Part shown: positions 991 to 57,225 of the stretch, piece after piece
Numbering within the stretch: the first letter of the stretch is position 1
How the letters are laid out: each line of letters starts with the position of its first letter
Assembly (NCBI GenBank): GCA_951406725.2
Contig: OX597834.1
Location: 34,534,001 to 34,598,000, forward strand
Direction: 5' to 3'
Origin: Octopus vulgaris
Lineage: Eukaryota
DNA: 64,000 nucleotides
Notes under the pieces: generated by a model
What the model was told of the DNA's origin: nothing
What the model saw: the letters and a program-made list of their open reading frames with translations, nothing else
Databases searched by the model: none
Position numbers and translations under genes: made by a program

Positions 991-1037
991 CAAATAATAA
1001 TATATATAATAATTTTAAAAGGAAACATTTTGCTTAC

Positions 1038-1133
1038 CTATGTTGCTGCTGAAATTTCCATAATTTAGTATATACATCAAAAGTCCTACCAAAGTAGGAC
1101 TGCCATTGTTTATGGCCATACTGAGGCAAATCT
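1038..1133 (-). CDS. SCAI: Internal coding exon of protein SCAI (suppressor of cancer cell invasion)
   Basis: On the minus strand, a TTTTTCAG acceptor precedes 96 nt (phase 2-2) and a GTAAGC donor follows. It translates as (R)DLPQYGHKQWQSYFGRTFDVYTKLWKFQQQH(R), which I recognise as near-identical to the conserved N-terminal segment of metazoan SCAI. Confidence 0.93.
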
Positions 1134-1217
1134 CTGAAAAAGAAAAACAAGCAATGAAAAAATATATACACAAAAAAATAAGATAAAAGATTTCTTACAT
1201 AGCTACAAGGTCAAAGA

Positions 1218-5484: not shown

Positions 5485-5870
5485 TCTTTTATTCTTTTAT
5501 TTGTTTCAGTCATTTGACTGTGGCCATGCTAGAGTACTACCTTTAATCAAACAAACTGACCCCAGGACTTGCCTGGTACTTATTTTATTGGTCTCTTTTG
5601 CCAAACTGCTCAGCTATGGGGACGTAAACACACCAACATCAGTTGTCAAGTAATGGTGAGAGGACAAACACAGACACACAAACACACACACACACATATA
5701 TATATATATACGATGGGCTTCTTTTAGTTTCCATCTACCAAATCCATTCACAAGGCTTTGATCAGCCTGAGGCTATAGAAGAAACCACTTGCCCAAAGTG
5801 CCACGCAGTAAGACTGAACCTGGAACCATGTGGTTGGGAAGCAAGCTTCTTACCACACAGACACACCTAT
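5485..5870 (-). mobile_element. SINE family 'C' with internal (CA)/(TA) microsatellite
   Basis: Minus head GTGTGGTAAGAAGCTTGCTTCCCAACCACATGGTTCCAGGTTCAGTC. Homologous copies lie at ~3585-3730, 13187-13345, 34680-35050, 37850-38203, 52675-53015 and 56030-56300. Confidence 0.8.
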
Positions 5871-5894
5871 GTATATACAATCTTAAGTACACAC

Positions 5895-9949: not shown

Positions 9950-11492
9950 CCACTCAACATCCAAGTACTTAGTATTTTGATGAGGAAAATATTTCATATT
10001 AGATTTTGCTCTATTGTCTTTACCTCTATTATCTATTACCTTTTTCTGTTCTTTGCTTTGTTTTGTTTTTTTCCTGCTACAGGAATTTCAAAATGTAGAA
10101 GTTCTGTAAGAGGCAATTTCATAGTCAAAGAAATTGTTATTTTTGTTGATAAACAAACAATGAAGACTTCCAAGTTTCTTCCTTCCACTGTCTGTCTTTT
10201 GAATTGGTGACTTCATTACTTTGCAATGGTTCTACCAAACTTTTCTACTGAGTAATTGCTTGGGGATGTAATTCTTGGAAGTGAAATTCTTCAATGTTTT
10301 ATACATCATTATTCTAAATATACTTCACAGTTTATAAATTGTAGACCACTATCATAAATGATACTTTTTTTAGAATTCCCCACAATGTGAAAAGCAATTC
10401 TATACAACTGATCCAATTATGAGTTCCAGTTGGTTTCATGACAAATATCTCAAGCCAGCATGACATACTACATTTAGAATAACTAAATGTGATTTTCTGA
10501 TGGGTAGCAGACTTTTGAAATCCACATGCAGTTTCTCCCATATATTTGGAATTATAGATATTATTAAGGATTTTAACAGCTCAGACAGTTCAAGCGATAT
10601 ACATATCAAACAATTTTTTACTTTATCTTTGTCAATACTAGCCCAGCACACTTTACTTCTTGGAAGTTGCTTTTTTTAAACATGACATTCCTGGGCAATA
10701 TCTAATACTTTTGTTCTTAACACAAAAGAAATGATGATTCGATTTCTTTGAAGAATGATATCTGATTTCTCTATAAGCTCTTGTTTTATAGGCAAATAAA
10801 TACTAGTAGCTGGATTTTTTCCATTCACCAGTTCACAGTACTTCTATTGCTTGGATAGTTGAGTTTTCCTTTCAAAGTTTTAGTAAGATAGATAAAGTTA
10901 CTATAGCTTTAGAAATTACATTTGCAATATGTTAGATTGTGGGTGCTCTTTATTAACTGAAGTTAGTATCACAGGACATCAATCTAAGTTTTCAGCAAAG
11001 TATTCGTGACAAAGGCTTTGCTTTTATATCAAATAGTCGTTGATGGTCACTAAAAATGTTGAACAGTCTTCCATACAGATAAATGTGGAATTTTCACATA
11101 TCCATACCACAAAAGGTCTTCTTTTTCAGTTTTATAACACCAGTGTTTGATTTTTGAAAGTACTTTGGAAGCATAGGAAATAACATGATATTCACCTCTT
11201 GGAATCATGCACCGATATGGTGTCCCAACTCAACAGAACTGGTATTAAAGTGTGATAATATTGTAGATGTTATGCAGTGATTTTAAATCCTGAAATTTTA
11301 AAACTTGTCTATTACTCCAATGATTTCCCACCCACCCCAATATAATCTGCTGAAAGAAATAAATGTTATATGATGCATTGATGGATCTAATCCTACTTGA
11401 TGATAGCCGGAATTAAGATCCAGTTTTAAAAGGAAGCATGATCCATTTAAATTTTCCAATACCTCATCAATGGTAAGTAGTGAATATTGCAT
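9950..11492 (-). mobile_element. Decayed Ty3/Gypsy LTR-retrotransposon pol (RT N-terminus, RNase H, integrase)
   Basis: Minus-strand remnants occur in Gypsy order: TIDEVLENLNGSCFLLKLDLNSGYHQ (RT), HVISYASKVL...FHIYLYG...SDHQ (RNase H), CWASIDKD..NCLIC (integrase Zn-binding) and WEKLHVDF / PQA..VEKFGRTI (integrase core). There are many stops and frameshifts. Confidence 0.85.
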
Positions 11493-12130
11493 CTTTTAGA
11501 AATACAATTTATTCACAAAAATTAATCATGAATTTGAAAGAAGAAATTGACAATGATGATGATGGTGGTCGCAGAAAATACACTATTGATAATAACTATG
11601 AAGATGAAAATGATGACTATGATAATGCTGACAGGTAGTGCTGACAATAATGACTATTATGATTAATGATGACTATAATGCTTCTGACACTGATACTGCT
11701 TCCAGTGATATGAAGACTTCATCTATGACAATGATGATGCTTCATTGATCAAAAGAGATGAAAAAGAAAATGAAGAGAGAGTACAACAACTTTTAGCAAT
11801 ATTCCTCAAAATGCCATAAAAGAGTCACACTAATGTTAACATCAACATCATCATCACCATCACAATCATGATGCTGCTACTGCTGCTCAGTTGTGATAGT
11901 TGTGAAAGTGACAACAGGAACGGTGTATGTTGTAAGCTGTATATAATAAGACTAAACCTAGAGCAACAATGTTTATACAATCAATATAGAACTGCTAAAC
12001 TCACTGATTGCCACTTCTTTTTACAGGTCTTTACGATAAATAACAACACAACATTGCTCTGTTTAATCTGCTCGTAATATTTTTTTCTTAATTTTGCAGT
12101 CACCCTCTCCCCCTTCTCCTCCCTCCTCTT

Positions 12131-18300: not shown

Positions 18301-19334
18301 GTGTAAACTAGATCTTTCAGGGTTTATCCCAGTTATGATAATAATAGAAAATAGAACATTCTAGCAATCATTTCTTCAGCAGAAATGAAAGAAAGCATTA
18401 CTTTACACAGATTTGAAGAAACATACAAAATATATAAACAATTTAAGGAAAATTAAATTATAGTAAAGAAAGAAATGAAAAACAGACTTCTCAGCAGCTA
18501 GGTCAAGAGTTTTTCAACAATCACTAGTAAAACAAAGGTGCTAATAGAGTATATTTCAAATATAGAATTATCTAGATATTTATAATTAAACTGACATATA
18601 TCGTTGCCATAAATAAAACCCAAACAACTATTACATTCATTTTGATTAAATGATTTTATATTCATGGAAACAAAATGTCAAATTTTGCCTGAATTTTTCT
18701 CTTACATTTTTGAAAATTTAATCTTAAATAAATCACAAGAATTTGACAGGACTAGTCCTGGTTTCCTTCAGATACCTGATAAAAAAAAAATTGAAGAGAG
18801 AACATGTAATCTTCCTGAAGCACTGAATATAACAAGATGATCCATTTGCTGCATAAAGTAGCACTTACACAAGCATTGCACATAAACAAAAACAGAAAAA
18901 TGTAGAGAGACACACACACGTGTGTGTGTGTATGTGTGTTCCCCTTTCTCTTTGTGTGTGTGTGTGTGTGTATACAGAGAGATGGGAAGACACACACATG
19001 CACACAAGAGGTTAGCTGAAATGATAGCAATGATTGAATTTTATTTTCAAATACAGTACAATAAACTAATCTATAAAAGCAATATTTATCATAAACATTG
19101 CACTAAATATCCACTCAGTTCTTCCTTTTGTTCTACACGTCTTGCCAGGCAAGTAGGTGGGGATGTTACTTCACAACTACATAACTTTTGGGTTTGATAC
19201 AGCTTCACATTACTTTGGGAAAGTGTCTTCTATGATAGACTTGTGTAGACTGAAGACATGTAAATGAAATATGATTGACAGAAAATGCATGGAAACCTGT
19301 CAAAGGAGCCATTTCTGTTTTAGGGTGATACTGT

Positions 19335-19510
19335 ACTCAGTGCTCCTGTGGGACCCCTACATGGACACACTAGAAGAGGGAGACCAAGAATGATATATGT
19401 TGATGCCCTAAGGACAGACACATGTCTCTGGGAGACACAGGACATAGCAGCGATGATGAGGGACAAAGACCGCTGGAGAGAACTCATCCATGGATCTCAG
19501 GAATTTTGCC
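19335..19510 (+). mobile_element. RTE-clade LINE 3' end remnant
   Basis: Translates with frameshifts as LLWDP.HGHTRRGRPRMIYVDALRTD...MMRDKDRWRELI, matching the RGRP...DR..WR C-terminal signature of RTE ORF2. Confidence 0.7.
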
Positions 19511-20383
19511 CACCCTAGATTTATACATATATATATATAACATTAATGTTATAATGTTCAGAATATCTTATTTCCCTATCTATTATATTCCCCTAAATAT
19601 TTCACTGTGTATGATGTACTCACTACATATTTCACTATCCATATCAGAAAACATCTCACTATCCATAATATACTACAGAACATTTCCGTATCCATCACAT
19701 AGCAGTAAATATTTAACTATTTTTGGTATAGCTACAAAATATTTCACTATGCTATAACCCTAAATATCCCTCTTTCCATGGCATAGCCCTAAAGCAATAA
19801 AATCAGTTCTGAATATGAAAATTACTCAGAATATAAATGTAACAAGAGATGGGCAGTGATACCACCCACATTGTAAACAGTAAAATAACCAGAAGAGAAA
19901 TAGGGAGAAACTGATGAAATCCTATTTGCTGATTGAAAAGCTAAATTGCTGGCATAGCTGGAAAATATTTCAGTGATTGGGAATGGTCATAAAATCTGTA
20001 TTATTGTTAATGAATAAATGGTATGGTGACCAGAAATCAAAGTAACAAAAAAAAATTATATATAGAGAGAGAGGAAGGGGTGCAAAGTGTTTATAGAAAT
20101 GATAGCATTCCAGACTAAATCTGTTGTGGCAACAATTTACAGGTCATGCTCTGATGTAAGTGGGCTTATGATTTTGTTCCTAATCCCACAGAGTTATTGT
20201 TGTGGTTATATTTTAGCTCAGGTCAGCTTGGTGTTGATGTTGTTTAGTCTGAAGTTAATCCCAGTGAAGTAGAGCTATGTGCAAAAGCAGTCAAACCATG
20301 ACCATCCCGTTTGTTTACTTTTCAGAAATAGCATTCCCTAGACAACATTATCCACTGTTACCCTTTTCATCACAGCTTCATCT

Positions 20384-20765: not shown

Positions 20766-22898
20766 GTGATGTTGATGATTTGAGAAGAGATTTGGCTGTT
20801 CTTTTTGACTGGTCAAACTATCACCTTACTAGTTCATATTAATACAGATGATAAGATGGTGATTACTGTTGCAATAGACCTTATTTAGACCAAAGAAGTT
20901 CCAATTGTGGCCACTCTGTATTTGGATTATTGTATTTAGTGTTGTTTGTATTGAGTGACTCAAGATAGCCCTAATCCAGTATTAGACTTTCTCTACTCAT
21001 GACTACACTGCCTTTTAGTCATACAATATATCTATGAGTACATTATTCATATTATATGTCTGCTTACTGTCCCCAATTAATTTTTTCAGGAAAATTGTAG
21101 TGCAAGCTCATTATTTAAAAGACAGTGTATTTCATTGGAAATATGGTAAGGAAAGAGTTAAAGGGCAAGCTGCTATATAACTCTGCTTGCACCAGTCTGT
21201 CTGGCTAACTGGCAAAAATAATAAAATCAGATTCCACTTCATTCATACTATATGGTTGAGTGGTTAATGGTAGGAAAGGCCAGCTGCTATAACTTTTGCT
21301 TGACTGACTGACGAATAGACAGGCTCCACTCCATTCATACATTACAGTTGAGTAGCAGTTAGTGGTAGGAAGGGCATCAAGCTGTGAAAGAAAAAACAAA
21401 AATGCTCCAACAAACATGCTATCCTACCTAGCCAACCATTGAGAAATAGATGTAGCATGATTAAAATATTTATATAGATATATACATATATTTACAAATG
21501 AAAATAAGGAAAAGTAGTGTTTTGAAAAAGCAGCAAAATTGAAAATATTTTTAAAGACTCAAAAATTTGGTTTAGTAAAACGTAAGGGGGGGGGGTCAGA
21601 AATAAGTTAATATGATTATGAATTCTTAAAACAAAAACTACACCAGCCTATAATTAGCAGATTATATATAGTTAGTCATATAAAGGTGATAATCCCAGTA
21701 AGATGGAGATTTTATGGTATTTATACAATTGATTTTATTCAAGGCTTCTGTCAAAACTACTGTTAATGTTTTAGTATACATACGTATACACATACGTAAA
21801 TATATATAAGTGTATGTGTACATGCTTGAGTATATGTGTGAACATATATTACTCTTCACACAGAAATAGGTTACATATTGATTATTTCATAGCCATAATG
21901 CCTATGATTTATGAGAGAAAGATAGAAGATTAGGTGACATTCATGCCACTGGAGGGTCAACATCAAAGTAAAACAGTTACAATGCAAAACTCAAACTAAT
22001 TTACTGACTTCACTTAGATGTAACTTGCCTATTTGATGTGGCACAGTGACAGCTTGTCTACTTTGCATGACACACAGACAGCCACTAAACAGTACATTAT
22101 GCTGGGGAGGAGCTAAAGGCACTTGTGTAACCTTCACTTCAATTAACAAAGGAAATTCCGTGTCCCTTCAAATCTGTGTCCAGTATGTGGAGTCAACTTG
22201 TCCCTCACATGCCCCTCTTGCTAAGCTTCTGGCAGCTTGTCTACATAACATTATAGCAGCCTGTCTACTCTCAGTTTCTTTTCCAAAAATCATGCAACAA
22301 ATTGTTTGATTCTTAATTACAATTACTAATCAACCTTGGTTTCCACAATATCCTCCATATAAACGTGATTATCATTATCATCATCACCAGCAACATGATC
22401 ATGATTATTACCTTCCCCACCATTATTACTACCAACGTCATCATGAATTTTACAATTACCAACACCACCATGATTATTACCTTCATCACCATTACTATGA
22501 TTTGTGATCATTACCACTACCACCACCATCATTACTGATAATCATCATGATTATCTCCATCAGGTTCAACAGCCCCGCCACCATCATGATAATCATTACC
22601 AGTACCATGGTTCTTATCACTACCATTGTGACTGTCACCATCACTACCAATCATTATTATCATCACCACATTCATCACCAGTCTTATATTTACTTGATCA
22701 TGATATATATATATATATTTATATATATATAGCACAATGCAAGACCGCACCTTTGATGCAAGTCTGAGGTGCCATTCTAATGTCTAAAACTGCAAATATT
22801 ACGTCAATTTTCACTGCATTGAAAGCAGAGAGGGTACTGAATCAATTGTAACTGAACATTAAAGATGTGTTTAAGTATTACTTTGTCTTATTATTTCG

Positions 22899-23746
<848 letters not shown>

Positions 23747-24522
23747 CTAAATATGATATAGTAAAGTTTAGATATGTTGCTATTACCAACCCATAAGTGG
23801 ATGATCAATTAGTTGGTAGGGAGGTTAATTCTTATCAAGGTTTACATATTATCAAATATAACTGAAATAAACATAACACATCTCTCACAGTAATATACAT
23901 AAACATGTGTGTGTGCATGCGCATGCACGCACGTGTGTGAATTAACAAATTATCATATCATATAACATATATGAGATAACCGTATTTGTTCGCACAGACA
24001 TGAGTGTATGTGTGTTAAAGACAGAGAGAAAGGAAGAGAGAGAAAGGGAAAGAGCGAAGGATTATTGTATTTCGTGGAAACAGGATTTATTCATAAAGAC
24101 TGTGCAGAGTCAGAATGAGTTGCTTGCCATTCCAATCTAAATGTGAGTCCCATGAGTTTTCATGCACAGCTCCACTCAACTAACTAATGTATGTCACAGC
24201 CCAGCAACACAGATATTTTACTGCGACTAAGCCAACATTCTTTATTATTATGACCAACAATGGGAAAAACAAAACAAACAAACAAAAGTAAGAAAAGTAA
24301 GAAAATCAATGTTAGATATTGTTGGAGTTTCTGTTTTGGTTTTTGCAGTTACAATAGACAGACAAGTTCAAGAGTCTTTTGTTTTTGTTGGGTAATGTAA
24401 GTCAGGAGAAGAGGTGCAATGCCAGTGGTCTTTGCCTGTCATACTCATGGACTGAGGAGATTGATATGGTGACTTTTTGTCTAACCTGAACAACTGCAGG
24501 TCAATATCTTAGAGCAAGCATT

Positions 24523-24755: not shown

Positions 24756-26042
24756 TGTGAATTGAGCAAACATTGCTGCAACTAGAAGCAGAGACTTAAT
24801 CTAAATGCTAGCAAAAGAGTGAATTCTAAAGATAGCCAAGGACAAGCATGGTAGTATGGTGTTAAACGAGGATTGTGTTCAGGTGTTAAACATGGTTATA
24901 TATTAGTCTTACCCCCAAAGGACCAGGTGGGGATGTTAAACGAGGTGATGTGTTACAGTTATCACCCAAGAATCACTCAAAAATCTGCTATGTTTAGTAT
25001 ATAATACGGAATGTGACAAGACCGACACTTTGAATTACAGGCACAAACTGTGTAAATATGTTGTTGCATAACCTCAGATCAACTCTGATCAAGAAAACCT
25101 ATGACCAAAATCATTACAGGTGTGACCAAACCCTTCATTTCAGGAGTGTATAGGGAATGCATTGTGTCCTTCCTTGTTTATGACAGGATTATGATTTGAA
25201 GGAAGTTTGGTTGCCACTTCTAGAGGTCAAGTGATAATGCATGGATAACCTCATTGGCCTGTTTTTAAATATGCACCCTAGGTTTGTAAGAAGCAGTAAC
25301 ACTATACTTAGCAAGTGAAGTAGTGGTAAGTTTAGGTCCTCTTATTGTCTTGGGCCACGATAGCAGCACTCACACAATGGTCATGTTTCAATCACTTGTA
25401 TCACCACCACCATGACCATCACATCAAATTAAACTTGATATGGAAATCAACTCAGTGTATCTCTCACAACTGACAAAGACCCCTAAATCTCTGACATGTG
25501 CTATGATGCACTAATCCATTCAGCTTTAGGTGACTATCATCACAAAAGATTTACTGAACTACAAAAGCATTACATAAAACATTCAGATAAGCTACATGCC
25601 CAAGGCACTATCAGTTATGATGATGAGTGATCCAGTTTATTTGATCAACTGAACATCCTGCATGTGAAATTAATGTGCAAGTGGCTGAGCACTCTACATG
25701 AAATCTTCTAATATTTGTCAAAAGACTGTACCAAAGAGAATCAAGGATTTGAGGGATTTTAATGAGCAATTATTGTGATTAAGACATAAACAAAAAGGTA
25801 CAAGAAGACACTATTCTAATAAATATATAAGAAACTTAAAAGAAAATGTTTCAGTTTAAATACTGGGGATTTTTTTGGTGTTGGAGATTGCCTTATTTAT
25901 TGCACAACTCAGGTGAAACAAATACCACAAGCCATTCTGCTCAAAAATGGCAAGTTATTTTTCTCAACAAAAAATATGTGTATATTTGTGTGTGTGTATG
26001 TGTGTGCATGCATATATTTACTTCATAAGTATATTTTCTCTT

Positions 26043-26341
26043 GCCGGCAACCGTGGAGAATGGCGACATACCGTAAAAGAGGGAATACAAAGGAGTGACA
26101 GAGAGAGAGAGGAGAAATGGAAAGAAAGGAAGAGACGTAAACAAGAGACTATGGCACTACAACCAGCCAGGAACAGTCTTCGCTACATTTGCGGTACCTG
26201 CCAGAGGGAGTGTTTGTCCAGGATAGGACTACACAGCCACAGCAGGAAATGTATCAGGACATGAAATATAAAAGCCGGACTAGACTACTTCATGCGCAAC
26301 TCCATTGTCTCCCGAGACAGAAAGGATGCCAATACAATACA
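26043..26341 (+). mobile_element. Young 5'-truncated RTE (BovB-like) LINE insertion with 12-bp TSD
   Basis: Open frame AGNRGEWRHTVKEG...ERKRRKQ...YICGTCQRECLSRIGLHSHSRKC*, then a short 3'UTR and a (CAATA)n tail. TSD ATATTTTCTCTT at 26031-26042 and 26342-26353. Confidence 0.9.
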
Positions 26342-27624: not shown

Positions 27625-30146
27625 CTATTAATAGAGATACTCTAGAAATAATTACATTTGAAAATATAATTTAAATTGTGTTTGAGAGAAAAATGAAATA
27701 TTTCTAATAATCTATAGATTTAACAAAATAATATCGTTATTATTATTATTATTATCATTATTATTATTATTACTACTACTATTATTATTCAAAGTGGGCC
27801 TACCCATGTAATTTAAATTATAATCTATATACTTCTACACTTCATATATTCAGCACCAGGATATATATACAAAGCATACACTTCTTCTTGTAAATAATGT
27901 GCTTTTATGTACACCATATGCAGGTAGTTGTAAGCAACTAACTACTCACTCCCTTACCTTCTCTTGTCCAGGGCTACAGCCTAGTAAATGCTTGTATAAA
28001 GCCCACAAAAGAATAAATAATAATGCAATTATATTAAAATGCAAATGTTGTTAACTAGTTGTTTGCAATGGTGTATGTAAATATGAAAACAAACAAACAA
28101 AGAAAGCATGGAAACAACATTGTATTTCAAAACTGTCCTCTTGTGCACACAACTTCTATTCACATTACACAGAGAGGGGGAAAAAAACCTGGCTTTTGAT
28201 GTAATCATGGGAGAGTGTAGGAATCGGTGGGTATTAGTCTAAGAAGTAATATATTAGCATTCTTTGTTCAGAATGTAGACAAAGTAAATTTGATATAAAA
28301 ACAAATATCTAACAGAATGCTTCAATCTGGATTTTATTATGAAAACAAATTTGCACAAGCAGTGATAATTGGTTAAGATACAAATTAACTATTGAAATTC
28401 AAATAGAAATTCATAAAATGAAAATAGAGTGGAGACTGTACAGACTGTAGTAAGCTAAGTAGAGGAAATAGAATTTAGTTACGAATTGGATACAAAGGTA
28501 CAAATATGTATTTTTTTAATAAAAACAAATTTCATTGAAATTTAATTTGCTTATTTAACAAATTGCTATGAAAACACCAGAAATTTGAGAAACAAACACT
28601 GAAAGTCTATAAAGTCATAATCACATTTATTTATTATCTATTTTTTTTAGTGTGTGTGTGTGTGTATCTAACAGAAATGGCTGATATTCATATAGAAGAA
28701 AACTAATGCAAAAAAAAAAAAAGAAAACAGAATACTTTGAAAAAATATTGTCTGTTAAGATGTAGATTAAATTTTTTGGTTTTATGTAAAAAAAAAAGAA
28801 AAACTAGCAATGGATTAGTGGAATTGTTAGAGAATCGGTATTTGTTCTAGCTCTGTGTATACCGAGTTCAAATTCCACCCAGTAACAAAAACAAACAAAA
28901 AAATGAACAGAGACATTTTTGCCAGGAGTTGAGACTGGCAGATAGTATCAGCAATATGAAAAACCAGTGAAAATCAATGAAAACAGTTTCCTTGGTTCGA
29001 TCAGAAGATTGACTGCCACTATTACACCATGTAAGAAGCTTAAAATAAAATGTAATAATCATAAATAATGTTAATTAATGTCTGAGATTTCAGGTTTAGA
29101 CTGAATAACTGAACACCACTATCCGACCCTTTGAGTGATTTTATCAGAGTTCACTCCATTGAAACTAGCCTGATAATACCTTCCTTCCAAAAGTCATAGA
29201 GGTCCTAAAAAGGATCATAGGGGTGAAATTGCCTCATCTTATTAAACCATTACAAAAAAAGAAAATTTATTTGCTAAATAACTAATTAAATGATCCTCAC
29301 TCATGAATGAAAATGTCTTCCAACATAAACTTAGACAAATAGCATATTTTAAATATACCTACATGAATAAACAGATTAACTTTTAAGACATTCAATGTAA
29401 TTTTCACAAATATTTTCCCCAGTGACTGAAATGGTCTCAACAATTTGGTTCATTTATGTTACAAAATATAAGTAAATCTATAAAATAAATTTTTCAAGAC
29501 AATCCACATAATTTACATTGAAATTTTTACCCTACTTTTGACATGGTTTCAACTATTTGGTTCCATTTATGTTACTTTATGCAAATATTCATTACAATGT
29601 AGGTAAAAATGCAAAAGCAATTTAAACAATGATTGGAACGGAATGAAACTTCAATTCACTTTCAGCATTGAATTCAGTAAAAATGTCACCATTAGAAATA
29701 ATGGAATTTAACATTTTTACAAAATGCACTTAACTAAATTTTGCATCTAAGAGAGGAAAATAATTGCCATAAAGCAACTGGAATAATAAATGGGATGAAT
29801 TAGACAAAACAATATTTCTACTAAATTCCTGTTATATCAAAATCTCAGCAGAAAATATTGGGGTTTTGGTTTTGTTTTTTTGGTTTTTATACCAAATAAC
29901 ACTTTATATTTTGAAGGAAGCAAGGAGGTCTCCCTGCCCCTTTTCTTGGATGCAGCAGACATAGTTAAATGATGTTAAACAGAGTAACTGGAATATAATT
30001 AGAAATATACATAATTTGTTTATTTAAGTTAATTAGAAATTTATAGAAAAAAGTAGTCACAGTCTAATTTTGGAAATATTAGTAGAATATTACATGGTCA
30101 TGATTCTGTAGTTGTTATAGTCAGTACTGTTTGTGTTTATCAGTTA

Positions 30147-31520
30147 TCAGTTTCTGGGTAATATCACCCGAGAATCCCTGGCATCTTTACAAAAAAGAAC
30201 TCGAATGCCAATACTAAAATTGGTTGCCAGAGCACGAGACCCAAGTTTACTGAGGTGTATTCCGTCTCTTGATAAATATTCCTTATTCACACCACCATCA
30301 GTCCAGAAAGCACTGTAATTGTCTAAGAATGCAAAACCACGAACCTGACATGCACGCATGCAGCAACAATTTGTAACATTAGTTTTACGGTTCCATTCCC
30401 AAGACATTCCACTTCTAGGAAGAATGGAAGAAAACATGATTTTCGTCCCTTTTGGAACAGATAATTTAATTTGTTCCAACATTGCTCCAACTTTATGGGA
30501 AACCAGCTCTGCTGAACTTGTCTCAGCAAGATCATTGCCGCCAGCATGAACAATTATTCCTTTATAATCACCATTCTTTGTCAGTTTAATCGCTTCTTCA
30601 GAAATTTTTTCAATACAAGCATTATTAAAACTCCTTATATCGATATGACTGATACTTTGCCGAGCCATGTTTTTCACACCACCTCCCCATACATGTTTAA
30701 TAACTGAACAGCCAATGATAAGAACTTTATTACCAAATCCTTGTTCAAAGTTTGTGCCATTTTCTTGAATTTTACAACAATTATTATGTAAATGATTACA
30801 CTCGTCTTTACTCCAAGATGATGATGCACATGAACTCAAACAATGCTGAGAACATACCACACTTGGACATGGACTTGTTGATGATGTTCGGCGAGGAGAT
30901 GGTACATACAAACTACTTTTGGGGTTGTTAAAGCAATCAGGACTAAAGTCTATCCAATCAGTAACATCTATTCCTGGAGGAGTTTGATGCTTTGGTGATG
31001 GATCTGAACACTCTATAGAAATGTCAACTGCCTGACTGTGTTCAATACGGCTCTCTAAATATTCCACACAACCTTCCAGTTCATGACACTTCCATTTCAG
31101 TTCATTATTATCTTGGTGTAATTTAGATATTTCTTGTTTCAATTCTTCATTGCAGTCCTCAAGAGATTTTATCTGTTTCCGTATGTGGTAAAGTCCTCCT
31201 TCAAGTCGGCAAAGTCTACAGACAAGACTGAATTCTGGTTCATCCACATTATTATCACGACTAACAATGTTATATTCAGAAAAACATGTGGAACATATTC
31301 TAGTGTTTGAACTGTTGGTTTGAGTACCGTTAGTCTGAACGTGTAAATCTGAGATAGATTTATCAGCACCCATCACTTTGCTCGGTGATTTGGAAAGCTC
31401 TTTCAGTATGTGCAAATTATCAGAAATATGGTTGTGTGTAATCTCACAATTTTTAATTGAGTTTTCTGGAACAAGAAGAAAACTTTCAGAACAGTTTTGT
31501 TCCTTAGAGTTACAACTCAT
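30147..31520 (-). CDS. Intronless 457-aa protein with C4 zinc knuckle, leucine zipper and SGNH/GDSL-type esterase (CR1/L2 LINE ORF1p-like; candidate domesticated gene)
   Basis: The only long non-repetitive ORF. It has C76xxC79-x21-C101xxC104 and L/I every 7 residues from 106 to 155. SGNH blocks are VLIIGCS (S272), HAGGND (N329) and RDGIH (D419/H422). The ATG has A at -3, with an in-frame TGA two codons upstream. Confidence 0.88.
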   Translation of the reverse strand: MSCNSKEQNCSESFLLVPENSIKNCEITHNHISDNLHILKELSKSPSKVMGADKSISDLHVQTNGTQTNSSNTRICSTCFSEYNIVSRDNNVDEPEFSLVCRLCRLEGGLYHIRKQIKSLEDCNEELKQEISKLHQDNNELKWKCHELEGCVEYLESRIEHSQAVDISIECSDPSPKHQTPPGIDVTDWIDFSPDCFNNPKSSLYVPSPRRTSSTSPCPSVVCSQHCLSSCASSSWSKDECNHLHNNCCKIQENGTNFEQGFGNKVLIIGCSVIKHVWGGGVKNMARQSISHIDIRSFNNACIEKISEEAIKLTKNGDYKGIIVHAGGNDLAETSSAELVSHKVGAMLEQIKLSVPKGTKIMFSSILPRSGMSWEWNRKTNVTNCCCMRACQVRGFAFLDNYSAFWTDGGVNKEYLSRDGIHLSKLGSRALATNFSIGIRVLFCKDARDSRVILPRN

Positions 31521-32029
31521 TTTTCACAAAGATATGTACTACATTGAGATTTTCGTTTATTTTAACCAATTTAATCCAGTGAGTAGAATAACAATGAACT
31601 TGTTAGTGATGTCCAAAGTGGTAAAATGTTGGTGGTAATGATAATAATAATAATTTGGTAAAATCCAATTCACAATAACAAAGAAAAAATATTCCAGTGT
31701 CAGCCACTAGATAGACCAGAGAAGAACCGACTGACTTTACTCACAATCAACTGTCTGCTATTTGTGTGCTTATCATTTCCAAACAATGGATGTTTTTATA
31801 TATGTATTGTGTAGAAATAGTGAATTATAAAATAATGACAATCATTTCCACTGACATATATCCATCAAGTAGTCTCAGCAATCTCCTGTTCAAGTAATAT
31901 TGTAAAGGGTCTCTTAGCAACCCTGTGTTCAAGCAATGTTATACATGGGGTGTCACAATATATAAATGTTGATGTATTGAATAGAAAGTAGTAAAGGGAA
32001 TTCCATAACATATGATATATGATGGTGAT

Positions 32030-32500
32030 ATATTATTCCGGAAACGTTTTGGTCAATCTGATGTAATTATTAGAAATAATCCATTAATTAGGGAAGCCAG
32101 ACGTCGCCCATTTTTTTTAAGTTAACAAAATGAAGAGAGGCTGAAGAAGAGTTAGAAAGTCATTCAGTTGTTAAAGGTGAAATGTTTTCATTTCATACAA
32201 GGCAACTGAGAGAGAGGGAGAGAAAGAGCAAACACACTGCTTCACCGCTTGTCTCAGTTGTCTTGAATCAATATAAATAATAGCCGAGATGTGAAGATTA
32301 ACTACATGGCAGTTTGTGCCCTTTAATCAGGTAAATAACTGTTCTTGATTGGCAGCATACAACTAGAGCTGGGTTGAAACAGTGGGGTTAACCAGATTAG
32401 TATGCGTATTTATACAATTTCAACTGATTAGTGGTGACTGATTTAGTTTGCTCGAGATAATTCAGAGCAAAGCTAATAACTGGCTGCACGTGTTTGCAAA
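32030..32500. promoter_or_regulatory. Candidate Pol II promoter region upstream of the SGNH ORF
   Basis: Repeat-free segment that retains CpGs. It contains TTCCGGAA (ETS-like, 32036-32043), GACGTC (CRE core, 32100-32105), CCAAT on the minus strand (32348-32352) and CACGTG (32487-32492). Confidence 0.35.
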
Positions 32501-32896
32501 TCAAACCACATCTACTGATAATATTCATTTTCACTAAATCCTAATACTGATGAATTAAAATTGCTGAGCCATGCAATCTGGATACATCACTTTACACATC
32601 AATTCAGGTAGGACATCCTCACTGACAGTTTCCATCTGCTCAGTCCAGTAAGCAAACAGAATATTTTAAATTACATTGGATATTTCACTGGAGTTGAATC
32701 AAAGAAAATACTCAGTGGAATGTCTAGAAAAGCTTACAACCTATATTTTGGTGAACAATAAACAAACCATGGCCTTTTTTAAAAAAAAATATCTTTATAT
32801 ATACATATATGTATGTATGTATTTGTATGTATGCATATATATCTCTGTGTGTGTGTATGTATATGCATAATTGCATATAAAAATGTGGATATTTAC

Positions 32897-32971
<75 letters not shown>

Positions 32972-34679
32972 GCTATAGATATACATATGCATAATGTTTG
33001 TGTGTGTGTACATATATAATATTAGTGTATATAGCTTCATGCACACACACGATACACACACAGAGTGAATAAGAAATTAGAAGACAAGGGATATGTGAGA
33101 GAGAGAGAGTTGGTTAAATCCAAAAGTAATTATACAGACCAACTTAAGATTAAAAAATAAACATTGATATTAACAATTGTTGATAGGATGAGAAATCCCA
33201 ACAATGATATATATATATTTGTGTGTGTGTGTATCATGGATGATGATGTCGATGTATATGTATTTATATACATATAAACATGAAAAAAGAAACAAACTAA
33301 CAAAAGAAGAATTGAATAAAATACTGACATTTGAGTAAGTATTGTTAATCTGTGAGTGGATATCTGCAGTTTGGAATTATTGCTGCAGAATCTAAGCCGA
33401 TGTTATTACTAACATTAAATCTTGTTCTCTTTTAGTGTCAGCTAACCTCATTAGCAACAGAGAATGACTTGCTGTTAGGGAATTACAAGGGTACCAGCAC
33501 CTAGTTGTTTGTCTTGCTAAAAACAGCAGCTGAAATTACCTCACACCATAATCTATTATCATAAAAAAAGAAAAAAACATGGGTATTTAGGATAATGTTA
33601 TTCTAGATATGTTATGATTCAATAAGACTAGGTGGTCATGGCTAGAGCATCTTGATCAGAGGTCTGCTGGATCAGAGCTGACAAAAGCAACTCTACAAGT
33701 GATACTACACATCAGCAAAGAAGTACTTGACCTGTTAGAAATAGCGATCAAGTCTCACACAAATCTCACCCTATCAGCTTAAAAAAAGAATGCACAAATT
33801 GGATAATGCAGTTCACAATACACTAACTCTGAATTTATAAGAAAAATAAAAAGACAGGATAATCACAGCTGAATGAAAGCTGGCCTAGGGCTAAACAACA
33901 ACGACAATTGAGTCAAGAAATATGGGAGTTGTTTCTAGCAGGATGAATGATCATATAGAAGTCTTTCTTAATGGTTTATGCTTTGTTGATAAGACTGTCT
34001 CATACAAAATGAGAAAAACAACAAACCAATTAAAACTAGATCTACATTAATTATAAGTAACACTGACATCATTAAGTAGATGGTATAGGTGTGTGGTATG
34101 GGGGTTAATGGTGTCTAATTGATATTTTTTTTCTTACATAAACATTTATTTTTATGTCATGTATCTGATTACTATTTATATATTATGTTCAGTTCATTAT
34201 AAAATTACATAATTATTTAAGTTAATTTCTTGCCTTCATCCATCTTCCTTTCTCTCCTCTCTTCCTAATGATTACGACCACTTTCATTGAATGTTAGGTG
34301 GGTCCTCTCTCTCCTCCATGATTGGTCTCTGAAGAGTATTCCCATCATGAAAATATGTTGAGGAAATGTTTTTTAACCTGAATGATGGGTTGTTGTGATA
34401 GGTGGTCACCGTGGAGGGGAGGCGCATTTCATGACGAGCTTCATTACATACCTTCTCCAGACTATCATTCTAGACAAGGTATGTAATGGAGGGGATGTTG
34501 CAGAGATAACGAGGTAGGCATTATGGACGGGGAGGAGGGGGAGTGGAAGGCATTGTGGATGAGTTCAACATCTACTGATATATGATCTCCAAAACATTCT
34601 TCCAGATATTAATCACAATAATAATAAACAATTACAACTAAACTAAGCATTTCAAGTATTTACATTTAACCATTTTCCC

Positions 34680-34905: not shown

Positions 34906-35050
34906 ATGGGTTTCTTTCCAAATCCACTCACAAGGTTTTGGTAGGCCCAAGGCTATAGTAGAAGACACTTGCCCAAGGTGCCACACAGTGGGACTGAACC
35001 TGGAACCATGTAGTTGGGACGCAAGTGTCTCCCCACACAGCCACAGCTAC
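34680..35050 (-). mobile_element. SINE family 'C'
   Basis: Homologous to 5485-5870. Confidence 0.8.
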
Positions 35051-52674: not shown

Positions 52675-53015
52675 TCTTGTACCTGTTTCAGTATTGAAGA
52701 GTTTCAGGCAAACAAATCAACCCTAGCATTTATTTATTAAGCCTGGTACTTATTCTATCAGTTTCTTTTGCCAATTTGCTAAGCTACAGGGACATAAACA
52801 CACTAACAGCAGGCGTCAAGTGGTGGTGGGGAACAAATAGACAAACACACACACACAACTAGCTTCTTTCAGTTTCTGTCTACCAAATCCACTCGCAGGA
52901 TTTTGGTCGACTCAAGGCTATGCTAGAAGACACTTGACAAAGGTGCCATGCAGTGGAATTGAATCTGGAACCATGTGGTTGGGAAGCAAACTTCTTACCA
53001 TGCAGCTACACCTTG
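52675..53015 (-). mobile_element. SINE family 'C'
   Basis: Homologous to 5485-5870. Confidence 0.8.
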
Positions 53016-56000
53016 CATTGAACAAAATCAAAAAGCAACAAGTCAAGTTGAACTCAGTTCTAGAAACAATCAAAACACTCAGCCTGTTTATAGTGTTGCT
53101 ACTGCTTGCTCTTCTCCTCCAACCTTCAACATAGTGAATTTCAGGTTGAAAGCCAACTAAATTGCTCTCACCATATTGGAAAAAACTTGCTAAGGTTATG
53201 GACACTGATTCATTCCTTCCTCTAGCCTCAACGTACCACTTGTTCACTTGTTTCATCACTACTGAAGAGATAGAAAATAAGCTGACACCAGCAATATTTC
53301 AGCTGTGAATATAAAGGGGTGTAACTAAATACTGCAAAGCATTTTATCCAGTTCTGTACTGATTCAGCAATCCACTACCCTCTTGGACTAAACCATATTC
53401 AAACATAAAGTACCTATTTCTAGACAGATAGGAGCCATCAATGGCTTGGCGCTCAAACCAAGGAAGCAATACAATGCTAGTAGGGACAGGGTATGACATG
53501 CCAACATGTATAGCATAGATCAAGTACAGCTAGGGTACATCCTAGATTTGATATCAGATACCTAAAGTATACTCTGCATCAGATACAGCTAAAATACACC
53601 CTGCATCAAATATATTTCTACATGTTTCAGGGTTCAACTCTACTTTCATCAGAAGAACCAGATGAGAAATAAAACTTCTCCTGGATGGACATTGGATGTA
53701 TCATTCCTATTCCCAACAAATCAGACAATGTAGATTATAGTCTTCTGTCCTGAAACGCTCGCAGGGAATTTGAACTTATGACCTGCCACTCACTTTCTAT
53801 AAATCAGATACATCCCAGATTAGATAGTAAGGAGAAACTTCATTAATGGGATCATCAAGAATTGGCACTAAACAACAATAACAATATTTTGTAATTTAAT
53901 TATTAGACTAGAAACAGGCCAACAGCTCCTTAGGAGACAGTATGAGGTTTAACTTTTGATGTACAGCAGCCAACTATATTTATAGTGTTATACATATATA
54001 TATACATATATACACACACACATGTGCGTGTGCACAGATCTCAACACATACTCACACATTCTATTGTTCTACTGCACTCTGTGACCTGGAATCATCAATA
54101 AATTGTATTTTTAAATTTTGTCCCTCTTATTGTAGCCAATATTTTAAACCAATCTCATTCAAATGATTCACTGTTGGTAGAGAACAGTTATTAATATTTT
54201 GGATTGTCAGGTGTGTGTGTGTGTGTGTGTGTTAGTGTGTAAGGTACTAACACTTGATAGAGTCAGTAAAATACCAACACTTCAGTCAGTAAGGTACCAA
54301 TAACTGGCTGGGTCAACAAGGTACAAAGATCTTAGTCAAAGAATGAAGAGTTCATATTTTATTAACCAACCCCAGTGTGTGTTACAAGCACATTCTGCTT
54401 GTAATGGCTCAATCTGATGTTTATTAGGGAAGAAACAGCAAATTGCGATAACTGATATTCTGTTAGCTTACAGAGAAGCAGAGTTCAAACCATCCCATGG
54501 GTTGAAGAAGCTGATAGCAAATCACTCCAGTACATCTTCCCTTGAATAACACTACGTTCTTTTCAATGAGTTTAGTCCGGTTGAGAGAGGGGGGTGAAGA
54601 GAGCAAGGGGAAGAGAGAGAGAGAGAGAGAGAGAGAGGCAATGCCAATCGATCACTTTCATAGGCCATACTCATACACCCAGACAGGTAAGAGCATTGTG
54701 GATTTTTAACTTGAATATTTGTTAATCATGTCAATATTTGTGAGAAAAAGCAAATAGGTGGGGATGAACATAGAGAAGATGTCTTCAGTGGTACTCCAGA
54801 GCAACTTTACTGAGCAGTTTTATGAAGTGGGGAAAATAAAATGTACAACAACACAGATTTAACACTAAATAGACAATTAATAACATTTCAGCTGGATCAA
54901 ACGAAATCCCTTGTATGTATTGTGTATAAAGTTTATATTTAAGTGAAGTTACACAACGATTCCATCTCGATAAATGGTAAAGATGATAGTTTTATGCATA
55001 GCTATCAAGAATCTCTTCATACAGCAATTTCCAATCAGATTCTGTACAAACATTATTAACAGAAACATTTACAGAAGGGAGGAAAAAAAACAAACAGAAT
55101 TATAGCAGAAGGAGGAGGATGAATATTTATGAAGGATAAACAAAATAATCTACAAAGTCAGAAAAAGCTAAGTGAATGGGGGCATGTGTGTGTGTGTGTG
55201 TGTGTGTGTGTACACATGTGTATGCACATGTGTTTCTGTGTGCACATGAGGAAGTATGTGTTTGTGTGTGAAAGTGTGTGTTTGTGCATGTAGGGGCACA
55301 TGCCTGGGCACAATTATATCTGTGCATTTGTAGAGGTGAGTATGCATGTGTGTGTGTGTGCATGTATATATTTATATATGTAAATATATTTGAAACTGGG
55401 AGGTTTCAACAATTCCCAAAATAAATGCTTACTCTACAACTAACCTGTATTGAGTTCTCTCTACCTTAGAGGTAGTAGTACTGAGTACAACCCACAGTCT
55501 ATCATCATTATTTAAAGTCTGTCTTTCATGTTGGCATGAGTTGGACAGTTTTACAGGACCCAAGAAGCCAAAGGATTACACAGAGCTCCAAAATCTACTG
55601 TGGTATGATATGGTTTCTGTGGTTTTTAATGCCAACCACTTTACAGAGTGTAGTAAGTGATTTTTTTAAGACATGCACCAGTAGAGTTGCTAAGTATATT
55701 GCAAGACAAAGGAAAAAGAACCCCTCGACCAAGTAGGGTTGTAGTAAAGAAGGAGATGGCCTTATGTTAGTTGTTAAAAGGTTAAAGTATGACAGAAGGA
55801 CAGGGACAAATGTTTTGCCATAAAGGAGATGCATGAACTGTGACAAATGCTAGGACACCACTTGTTGCAAAGGTTTTAGTCACTCAGATGAATCCCAGTA
55901 CATATCTAAGTCTTATTTTATTGCTCTCTATTTATCAAATACAAACACACACACACACATAAAGTGATCAAGCAAGTTTCATATGTCAAAGTGTGGAGCA

Positions 56001-56929
56001 CTCAACATAATGAATATAGAGCTAACAAACTGAAAGCAGCCCATTGTAAGTATGTGTGTGTGTGTGTGTGTATCTCTGTGTGTCATTGTGTTTGTCCCCC
56101 ACCAACACTTGACAACTGGGGTTGGTTTGTTTCTGTATCTGTAACTAAGCAGTTTGGTATAAGTGTTTGGTATAGAATAAGTACCAGGCTGGAAAATAAT
56201 AAGTACTGGATTTGATTCATTTGATTAAAACCCTTCAAGGTGGTGCCCCAGTATGGCCACAGTCCAATGAGTGAAACAAGTAAAAGATAAAAGATAAAGT
56301 TTTTAAGGTAAAGAGAGAGAGAGAGAGAGAGAGAGAGACACACACACACGCAAGCCATCATCGTCAGCAGCAGCATTGTTTAATGTTCATATTCAATAGG
56401 AAGTGAGAAACCAAAGATGTGCATCAAACTCCAGTGTCTGCTTTGACATGGGTTTTACAGTTTCATGCCCTTCCTTCTGGCAACCACTTTACAGTGTGTA
56501 CTGGGTTTTTTTTTCCCCAAAGGCAGTAAAACTATTGAAGTCACCAAGTACTCACAACACAAGATCCCTCAACTGAGTGGAGTATAGTATTGAAGGGGGT
56601 GAAAGTATAACTGAGGGACAGAACAAGTGTCATGCTGAAGAGGATGTGTGTGTATGCGTATGTGTGTGTGTGTGTGTGTGTGTGTGCCTGTATTTACATA
56701 TGCATGTATGTATGTTGTTGATTGGGAGAGGGAGGCACAATACCGAGATAGATGGAGGAAGAGAGTGCACGGTGGTTGTTCAAGGTTTGAAAGAGAGAGA
56801 ATGAAGCATAAGAAGATTAGGAGAAGGCTTTGAAGGAATGAACCTGTGGAAAATGAGGGACTGTTGGTTTTTGTGTGTGTGGTTTGTGGGAGGAGGTGCT
56901 TGAGTTATGCGGGCCTGGTCAGCCATCAA

Positions 56930-57225
56930 GTAACTCACAGGAATCGACCCATGGTAAATTGTGATATGGCTCTTGTTCACAACAGAACATGTACAAGATG
57001 TGGAAAGGTGTTGGAGGATTAAAAAGTCATGTCAAAAGGGTTCATACTGTGGCACCTGTTCCTTCTGCCAGCCAGCACAGCAATACATTATGTAATAGAA
57101 TGTGCAAAACTTTTGCCAGGCTCAAGAGTCAAACAAGGGCCTCACATTGCATCAACATTGACTCATTTCAATGACTCTTTCTAGCAATGGCTTTGCTCAT
57201 ACACGAGAAAGCAGCTAAGATGTAT
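56930..57225 (+). mobile_element. Decayed RTE-type LINE 3' end with C2H2-like motifs
   Basis: GGLKSHVKRVH...CNRMCKTFARLKSQ followed by a short 3' tail that runs into a microsatellite. Confidence 0.55.

Follow-up and report, generated by a model that had tools for sequence, protein, structure and literature searches.

The window analysed here, a stretch of 64,000 nucleotides from Octopus vulgaris, contains an intronless gene (P0001) for a protein of 457 aa that is quite likely a domesticated retrotransposon protein of cephalopods. More specifically, we think it likely that P0001 represents the domesticated esterase-type ORF1 of an extinct non-LTR element, predicted to form a zipper-linked dimer and likely to carry active SGNH esterases.

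The frame runs without interruption on the minus strand from an ATG at 31520 to a TGA ending at 30147. A previous reading of the window, made from the sequence only, had described an intact ORF with its own start codon and an in-frame stop just upstream, and both were recovered when the coordinates were re-derived (Table 1). It had also described all other transposon-derived coding stretches in the window as broken or truncated. Of the 44 ORFs of 100 aa or more that were listed, only P0001 is longer than 210 aa and not the translation of a microsatellite. When the region 27800-32780 was shuffled 300 times, no ORF was longer than 173 aa.

Table 1. Features of the P0001 locus, in window coordinates unless another piece is named
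Feature	Position	Strand	Remarks
In-frame TGA	31526-31524	-	two codons 5' of the P0001 ATG
P0001 ORF, candidate domesticated esterase-type ORF1 gene	30147..31520	-	one open frame, 457 aa
Variable N-terminal extension, aa 1-75	31296..31520	-	low identity to P0003, in-frame deletion in P0002
Putative C4 zinc finger, CxxC-x21-CxxC (C76, C79, C101, C104)	31209..31295	-	Cys pattern
Leucine zipper/coiled coil, aa 105-162	31035..31208	-	heptad L/I/V/N/C pattern
Ser/Pro/Cys-rich linker, aa 163-262	30735..31034	-	weakly constrained
SGNH hydrolase domain, aa 263-445	30186..30734	-	Pfam Lipase_GDSL_2, PF13472
Upstream non-coding DNA, conserved (candidate promoter or 5' UTR)	31673..32433	-	organism E conservation
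Candidate 3' UTR	28500..30146	-	AATAAA/ATTAAA at 30024, 29271, 28635, 28546, 28520
Decayed dispersed repeat	28830..29020	.	30 genome matches, 73-92%, query positions 1-134
SCAI coding exon 2	1038..1133	-	inside window
SCAI exon 1	L022:5278-5375	-	~55 kb past window end

The zipper, the Ser/Pro/Cys-rich linker and the SGNH domain had been named before, and the heptads, the Pfam hit and the AF2 fold agree with this assignment. The motif ahead of the zipper had been called a zinc knuckle. The spacing CxxC-x21-CxxC is indeed present, but it belongs to a C4 'zf/lz' finger without the CCHC pattern of a knuckle. Its four cysteines are invariant in all four rows of the cephalopod-type alignment A1, and the finger would be expected to bind zinc. 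The Pfam search of P0001 returned no RRM, and there is no Arg-rich motif (no 15-aa window holds five or more Lys or Arg residues). The finger/zipper part is acidic (pI 5.0) and the SGNH domain basic (pI 9.4). Direct RNA binding is thus less likely than for L1TD1, and the previous suggestion of an RNP-forming protein finds no support.

The match of P0001 to Pfam PF13472 (Lipase_GDSL_2) has an E-value of 1.3e-9 and scores above the curated cut-off. The SGNH triad (S272, D419 and H422) and the block III oxyanion residue N329 are present. By alignment, they correspond to S143, D279, H282 and N195 in 4C1B, the esterase of ZfL2-1 ORF1p, and all four are invariant across the four cephalopod-type proteins that span these positions. 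Two other positions near the active site deviate. Block I reads GCS in the P0001 family, with Cys in place of the Asp found in 90 of 144 relatives (Ser in 28). In block II, the oxyanion Gly is replaced by Asn300 in P0001 and P0002, whereas P0003, P0005 and 130 of the 144 distant relatives have Gly. The backbone NH of Asn300 may suffice for the oxyanion role, yet the block I Cys and the block II Asn, as read from the alignment, may reduce or alter the esterase activity. A CCC cluster at residues 385-387 is conserved within the P0001 family, and we assume that it could be acylated.

The sequence of the SGNH domain points to retrotransposons. In a PDB sequence search, 4C1B came first of 17 matches (E 6.9e-6), and a profile built from alignment A2 (P0001 and relatives) scored it at 162 bits, compared with 96 for the next, bacterial, entry and 81.5 for PAF-AH. 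The ZfL2-1 esterase has the triad S143/D279/H282, the oxyanion residues G165/N195 and the transposon-specific residues H191/S228, according to passages of PMC3905857. H191 and S228 align with H325 and S364 of P0001, and G165 with the changed N300. Of the 144 distant relatives, 97 keep the transposon-specific His and 115 the Ser; alignment A2 left out four of the 148 distant hits (P0114, P0129, P0152 and P0153). The search with an E-value limit of 0.001 yielded 471 representatives, all distant except for two of the cephalopod type, with 24-40% identity among the 150 matches listed. A CxxC..CxxC motif precedes the SGNH domain in 26 of the 148 distant relatives, and in 16 of these a zipper-like stretch follows by a crude score. 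Among the A2 members, zf-CCHC was found in 11 and PHD in three, and Pfam OSK also matches 23 of the 148 A2 members. According to the parts of PMC4120745 consulted, the accessory domains of non-LTR ORF1s include CCHC and PHD, and the type IV ORF1 is defined as 'zf/lz + esterase'. The named Atlas neighbours of P0001 are 94-100% eukaryotic. Of the 20 relative clusters that were looked up, 15 are nameless, one is labelled as a bacterial MAG protein and one as a 'lysophospholipase L1-like esterase'. In the cluster of relative P0170, one member protein occurs in identical form at three loci of one spider genome. An Atlas search with the finger/zipper alone gave no usable match.

The ranking by structure is different. 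The AF2 model of the SGNH domain, based on 148 sequences, is of high quality (pLDDT 93.6, pTM 0.91) and has the flavodoxin-like five-stranded fold, with 7PZG as the best match (Z 21.2, rmsd 2.3 Å, 173 residues aligned). Structure searches place bacterial SGNH enzymes first, whereas 4C1B has Foldseek rank 22 (TM 0.48) and lies outside the VIA top 50. The 4C1B crystal form is domain-swapped, as stated in a passage of PMC3905857, and this probably explains its low rank. The question whether P0001 is closer to a TE ORF1 or to other SGNH families is thus answered in favour of a retrotransposon ORF1 esterase by sequence, and in favour of bacterial enzymes by the structure ranking.

Overall, a retroelement origin of the SGNH domain is very probable. 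The likeliest donor is a non-LTR ORF1, in agreement with the sequence-only reading, but a LINE donor is not proven, because SGNH domains are encoded by ORFs of Ngaro, Penelope-like and rotifer LTR elements as well (parts of PMC5408684 and PMC9210276). A quick tree of 145 of the 148 rows (three short rows were dropped), which contained no named TE or cellular reference rows, left the position of the cephalopod clade uncertain, with a sister support of 84. In a scan of metagenome contigs with relative P0047 for an adjoining ORF2, none of 85 stretches was confirmed, and no distant relative was found upstream of an ORF2. In one distant relative from outside the window, the frog gene model P0114, an SGNH domain of the TE type is fused to FNIP domains; this results either from a join made by the annotation or from the exonisation of an ORF1 esterase.

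P0001 is the only locus of its kind that five kinds of query detected, as would be expected for a gene of low copy number. Searches of the whole genome (2.80 Gb) with the SGNH protein (nine candidates scored), with Pfam PF13472 (one candidate) and with a distant-relative protein (five candidates) each gave a single match, the P0001 locus. The finger/zipper query retrieved this locus and one extra match, C6, which has an E-value of 0.07 and three stops and was treated as coiled-coil noise. With 3.8 kb of DNA as the query, only the P0001 locus was found, and the 30 other matches all fell on a repeat of about 130 bp at the downstream edge. The same type of search in the same genome yielded 56,077 RT and 6,905 endonuclease candidates. 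All these counts are lower bounds; the searches scored the best candidates only, and decayed copies could escape. PF13472 detected no second SGNH gene in the genome, and even PAF-AH subunits were missing from the result, although split exons may hide such a gene.

The hallmarks of a LINE, namely a downstream ORF2 with APE and RT, a 3' tail and many copies, were not found. ORF2 proteins from 60 LINE loci of the genome detected no ORF2 remnant downstream of P0001, and matched the window only in three short segments (5757-5879, 34937-35047 and 52941-53018), all on the strand opposite to P0001 and none within 3.4 kb of it. Conversely, an SGNH profile had no match in the 60 LINE loci with about 1.5 kb of flank on each side. 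The region 27700-33000 showed neither a TSD nor a terminal repeat. The previous statement that the DNA downstream of the gene has neither ORF2 nor TSD agrees with these results, but this DNA is not exclusively UTR-like, as it includes a decayed dispersed repeat of about 190 bp, within which multi-mapping read contigs were found at 28837-28963. The repeat, presumably SINE-like, is probably unrelated to the gene. Elsewhere in the window, there are short broken retroelement fragments at 11301-11495 (-), 19324-19515 (+), 25917-26264 (+) and 56834-57019 (+), which we take to be one Gypsy-like RT piece and 3' ends of the RTE/CR1 type; relative to P0001, the LINE-like fragments are in antisense orientation. 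Some 900 bp of (TA)n repeats are found at 22850-23800.

Close homologues exist in Argonauta and in more distant genomes. P0002 is 96% identical over the aligned residues and has a 12-aa in-frame deletion in the N-terminal extension. Its differences from P0001 affect 2 of 195 residues in the SGNH part, compared with 17 of 250 elsewhere (p 0.003). P0004 from Argonauta hians, the only named close homologue, is 74% identical (72% in the N-terminus), in a partial model that ends 26 aa into the SGNH region. The 18 extra N-terminal residues of this model resemble, by eye, an off-frame translation of window positions 31521-31550 (-), so that the 5' flank of P0001 looks homologous in Argonauta too. P0003 and P0005 are each encoded by one continuous ORF, found on 22 contigs and on a 76-kb contig, respectively. 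P0003 is 59% identical to P0001 overall, but only 42% in the linker and 19% (13 of 69 residues) in the N-terminus. From aa 263 onward, 164 of 195 residues are identical, compared with 95 of 247 before (p 3e-23). For P0005, the corresponding count is 165 of 195, and the SGNH identity of the two proteins is thus 84-85%. In view of the much better conserved Argonauta N-terminus, P0003 and P0005 must come from a far more distant lineage, which, judging by these identities, is probably decapodiform. Searches for further homologues of the SGNH domain, at near and longer lengths, gave no new orthologue and no fusion, which is a weak result.

Purifying selection could be assessed in organism E, a related species, for which the contigs of run X20 span the ORF and both flanks, so that the locus is orthologous. 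These are single low-depth contigs, with 23 coding changes listed and up to four more unlisted. Over the whole ORF, there are 11 synonymous and 12 non-synonymous changes (pN/pS 0.28-0.43, p 0.003-0.036; 0.55 and p 0.097 in the worst case for the unlisted changes). The finger/zipper has two non-synonymous and five synonymous changes, and the SGNH domain none and four (worst-case p 0.09 for this domain alone). Together, the domains have two non-synonymous and nine synonymous changes (p 2.3e-4, or 0.007 if all four unlisted changes were non-synonymous). In the N-terminus and linker, the numbers are ten and two; all four changes in aa 1-75 are non-synonymous, and pN/pS of the linker is about 1. 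The constraint thus acts mainly on the finger/zipper and the SGNH domain. For a single-copy locus that is fixed, this indicates selection by the host.

The gene lies inside SCAI, as had been proposed, on the same strand and in intron 1. The Pfam SCAI profile has 12 matches on the contig, all on its minus strand, and the most 5' of them is at window positions 1034-1150. SCAI exon 1 was not found within the 64-kb window. As it is located about 55 kb outside, P0001 is nested in sense orientation in a phase-2 intron of 118 kb. The next gaps between Pfam-matched exons measure about 45, 39 and 46 kb, and the 3' exons of SCAI are packed within about 22 kb. At L023:6680-6985 (+), about 11 kb from SCAI exon 1, there is an exon in head-to-head orientation to SCAI. 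We take this exon to be deoxyhypusine-synthase-like and those beyond it, in L025-L026 (-), to be BAG6-like; both are useful as synteny markers for the SCAI region.

Organism E shows 5 differences over 658 bp upstream of the ORF, compared with 26 over 673 bp of the downstream flank (p 1.7e-4, Fisher test). The conserved upstream stretch contains TATAAATA at 32414-32407, which may have a promoter role. Within 32137-32433, 299 bp are free of substitutions in organism E, compared with about 3.9% downstream; this segment contains CCAAT at 32352, a box resembling TATA and, near 32206, a CT-rich site that resembles a splice acceptor. CACGTG is found at 32492. P0001 is present in 14 runs that are guessed to be RNA, none of them on record as such. 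Three runs of this presumed kind cover the gene unspliced, in unstranded contigs that SCAI pre-mRNA from the same strand could equally contribute to, and one contig of 3,893 bases spans 28789-32681 without splicing. No splice joint at P0001 was detected in any of four runs. Three runs show a loose end at 28507 that lacks a splice donor; it was dismissed as a chance AT-rich match. The X11 and X12 contigs end at 28461-28789, near the AATAAA at 28635, whereas X1 continues, and the 5' ends disagree (32007-32773). The ends of the X11 and X12 contigs are at most a weak hint to the 3' end of a transcript.

The location raises the possibility that P0001 is an alternative last exon of SCAI, in a fusion or an alternative transcript, by an exonisation of the Lyosin type (PMC12129022, in part). 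The sense orientation would fit, as would pyrimidine-rich AG sites near 32206 and near 31466, but none of the six candidate acceptors in 32800-30900 opens the phase-2 frame from SCAI exon 1 into P0001, the contigs are unspliced, homologues have a start Met of their own at the corresponding position, and, as a weak argument, there is no longer fused form among 383 candidates. We consider such an exon highly improbable. The same holds for the idea that P0001 is what remains of an element with present or recent mobility, or a non-autonomous member of it, kept intact by selection at the level of the element. It is true that TE ORFs likewise show domain-level constraint and that the genome searches scored the best candidates only, but the single copy, the absence of ORF2, tail and TSD, and the same locus and flanks in organism E, with mainly synonymous changes in the domains, all argue against this. 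An ordinary cellular SGNH gene, or one acquired horizontally from bacteria, that gained a finger and a zipper is very unlikely as well. The bacterial best fold matches, the lack of introns and the relative labelled as a bacterial MAG protein would be explained, but not the strong preference of the sequence profile for 4C1B, the retention of both transposon-specific residues, the finger-zipper-SGNH layout common to many relatives, or the largely eukaryotic origin of the named Atlas neighbours.

It is harder to decide what the presumably domesticated protein does. P0001 could be a non-catalytic scaffold, an RNA or RNP factor, or a dominant-negative restriction factor against esterase-type LINEs. 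The two changes near the active site (GCS for GDS, and N300 for the block II Gly) are in line with this, as are the OSK matches among the A2 members. Inactive SGNH proteins exist, as excerpts of PMC3905857 report for Oskar and insect PAF-AH, and L1TD1 is a precedent (PMC4161310, in part). On the other hand, the four catalytic side chains are invariant, the absence of an RRM and of K/R-rich windows and the acidic finger/zipper do not suit an RNA factor, and no esterase-type LINE to be restricted was found in the genome searches. We regard these roles together as rather unlikely. Selection on the enzyme domain and the invariance of the catalytic side chains favour an active, but probably slow, esterase.

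How such an esterase might work is suggested by structure prediction. For aa 70-168, ESMFold2 predicts a parallel homodimer with an ipSAE of 0.54, compared with 0.01 for the best control, and at least 98% contact agreement between runs (pLDDT at least 81). Of 16 animal homodimers, 7 attained the ipSAE mark, and of 30 eukaryotic monomers none did, but the score may reflect generic coiled-coil memory. A full-length AF2 model from four sequences was discarded (pLDDT 39). The ZfL2-1 esterase slowly hydrolyses pNP-acetate and binds acidic phospholipids and liposomes via its surface charge, according to parts of PMC3905857. We therefore picture the following course. A non-LTR element would have inserted in a cephalopod ancestor and lost its ORF2, and the element family would then have become extinct. 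P0001 would be transcribed from its own conserved upstream region, without splicing to SCAI. The zinc finger would cap a parallel coiled-coil dimer, from which long flexible linkers tether two esterases. Each basic esterase could dock on anionic lipids and slowly hydrolyse short or lipid acyl esters, as ZfL2-1 ORF1p does. Selection seems to act on an enzymatic or lipid-related activity, and not on RNA binding; that this activity is specifically the one of a membrane esterase or deacylase is a tentative proposal, with the chances slightly below even. A bolder proposal, which we consider improbable, is that P0001 is coleoid-wide, perhaps more than 250 million years old, and the first domesticated esterase-type ORF1, a LINE-derived counterpart of Arc. 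It would have kept Gag-like membrane docking, would release itself or a cargo by one round of lipid-ester hydrolysis, and might take part in the traffic of vesicles or RNPs, perhaps in the nervous system of cephalopods.

Host genes built from a LINE ORF1 are rare. The literature searched names, in the parts consulted, L1TD1 and a few vertebrate exons, all of the RNA-binding L1 type. Our search, which covered few subscription journals, found no report of the P0001 gene or of any domesticated esterase ORF1, and the passages of PMC9115989 that were searched mention neither esterase nor SGNH. If our reading is true, a constrained invertebrate gene of the esterase type represents a second route, in which an enzyme was captured from a retrotransposon. 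P0001 would also be a candidate lineage-specific cephalopod gene that can be tested in tractable species. It also bears on what the retrotransposon esterases act on, because a host-selected, single-copy version that can be knocked out would expose the substrate.

Among known proteins, PAF-AH IB, bacterial sialate O-acetylesterase and the OSK domain of Oskar share the fold of P0001 (Z 16-21), but cellular SGNH hydrolases are much weaker matches to the sequence profile than 4C1B. To our knowledge, neither they nor OSK carry a finger/zipper module. Lyosin and other exons derived from L1 ORF1 resemble P0001 as ORF1-derived coding sequence inside a host gene, but they are spliced to host exons (PMC12129022, in part), whereas the searches for P0001 gave neither an in-frame acceptor nor a splice joint. 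Eutherian L1TD1 is, like P0001, a host gene derived almost wholly from a LINE ORF1, without ORF2. It is of the coiled coil-RRM-CTD type, binds RNA, has evolved under positive selection and was often lost, as far as parts of PMC4161310 describe it. In contrast, P0001 is of the esterase type, seemingly enzymatic, and under purifying selection in its domains. The closest counterpart is ORF1p of the zebrafish L2 LINE ZfL2-1 (4C1A/4C1B), which has a coiled coil, a poorly conserved linker and a C-terminal SGNH domain (passages of PMC3905857). It shares with P0001 the triad, the oxyanion Asn, the transposon-specific His and Ser, a basic esterase and the lack of an RRM. More widely, type IV zf/lz-esterase ORF1s are found in CR1, L2, RTEX and Penelope-like elements (PMC4120745, in part). 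P0001 differs from ZfL2-1 and the type IV ORF1s in being single copy, without ORF2 and constrained across species, with only about 23-30% identity. The GCS block I, the block II Asn (shared with P0002) and the CCC cluster are its own peculiarities, it lacks the Arg-rich linker motif that is frequent in ORF1p of the CR1 clade, and its dimer is predicted to be parallel, whereas that of ZfL2-1 is antiparallel. Taken together, P0001 probably descends from a type IV ORF1p, but is no member of an active LINE family.
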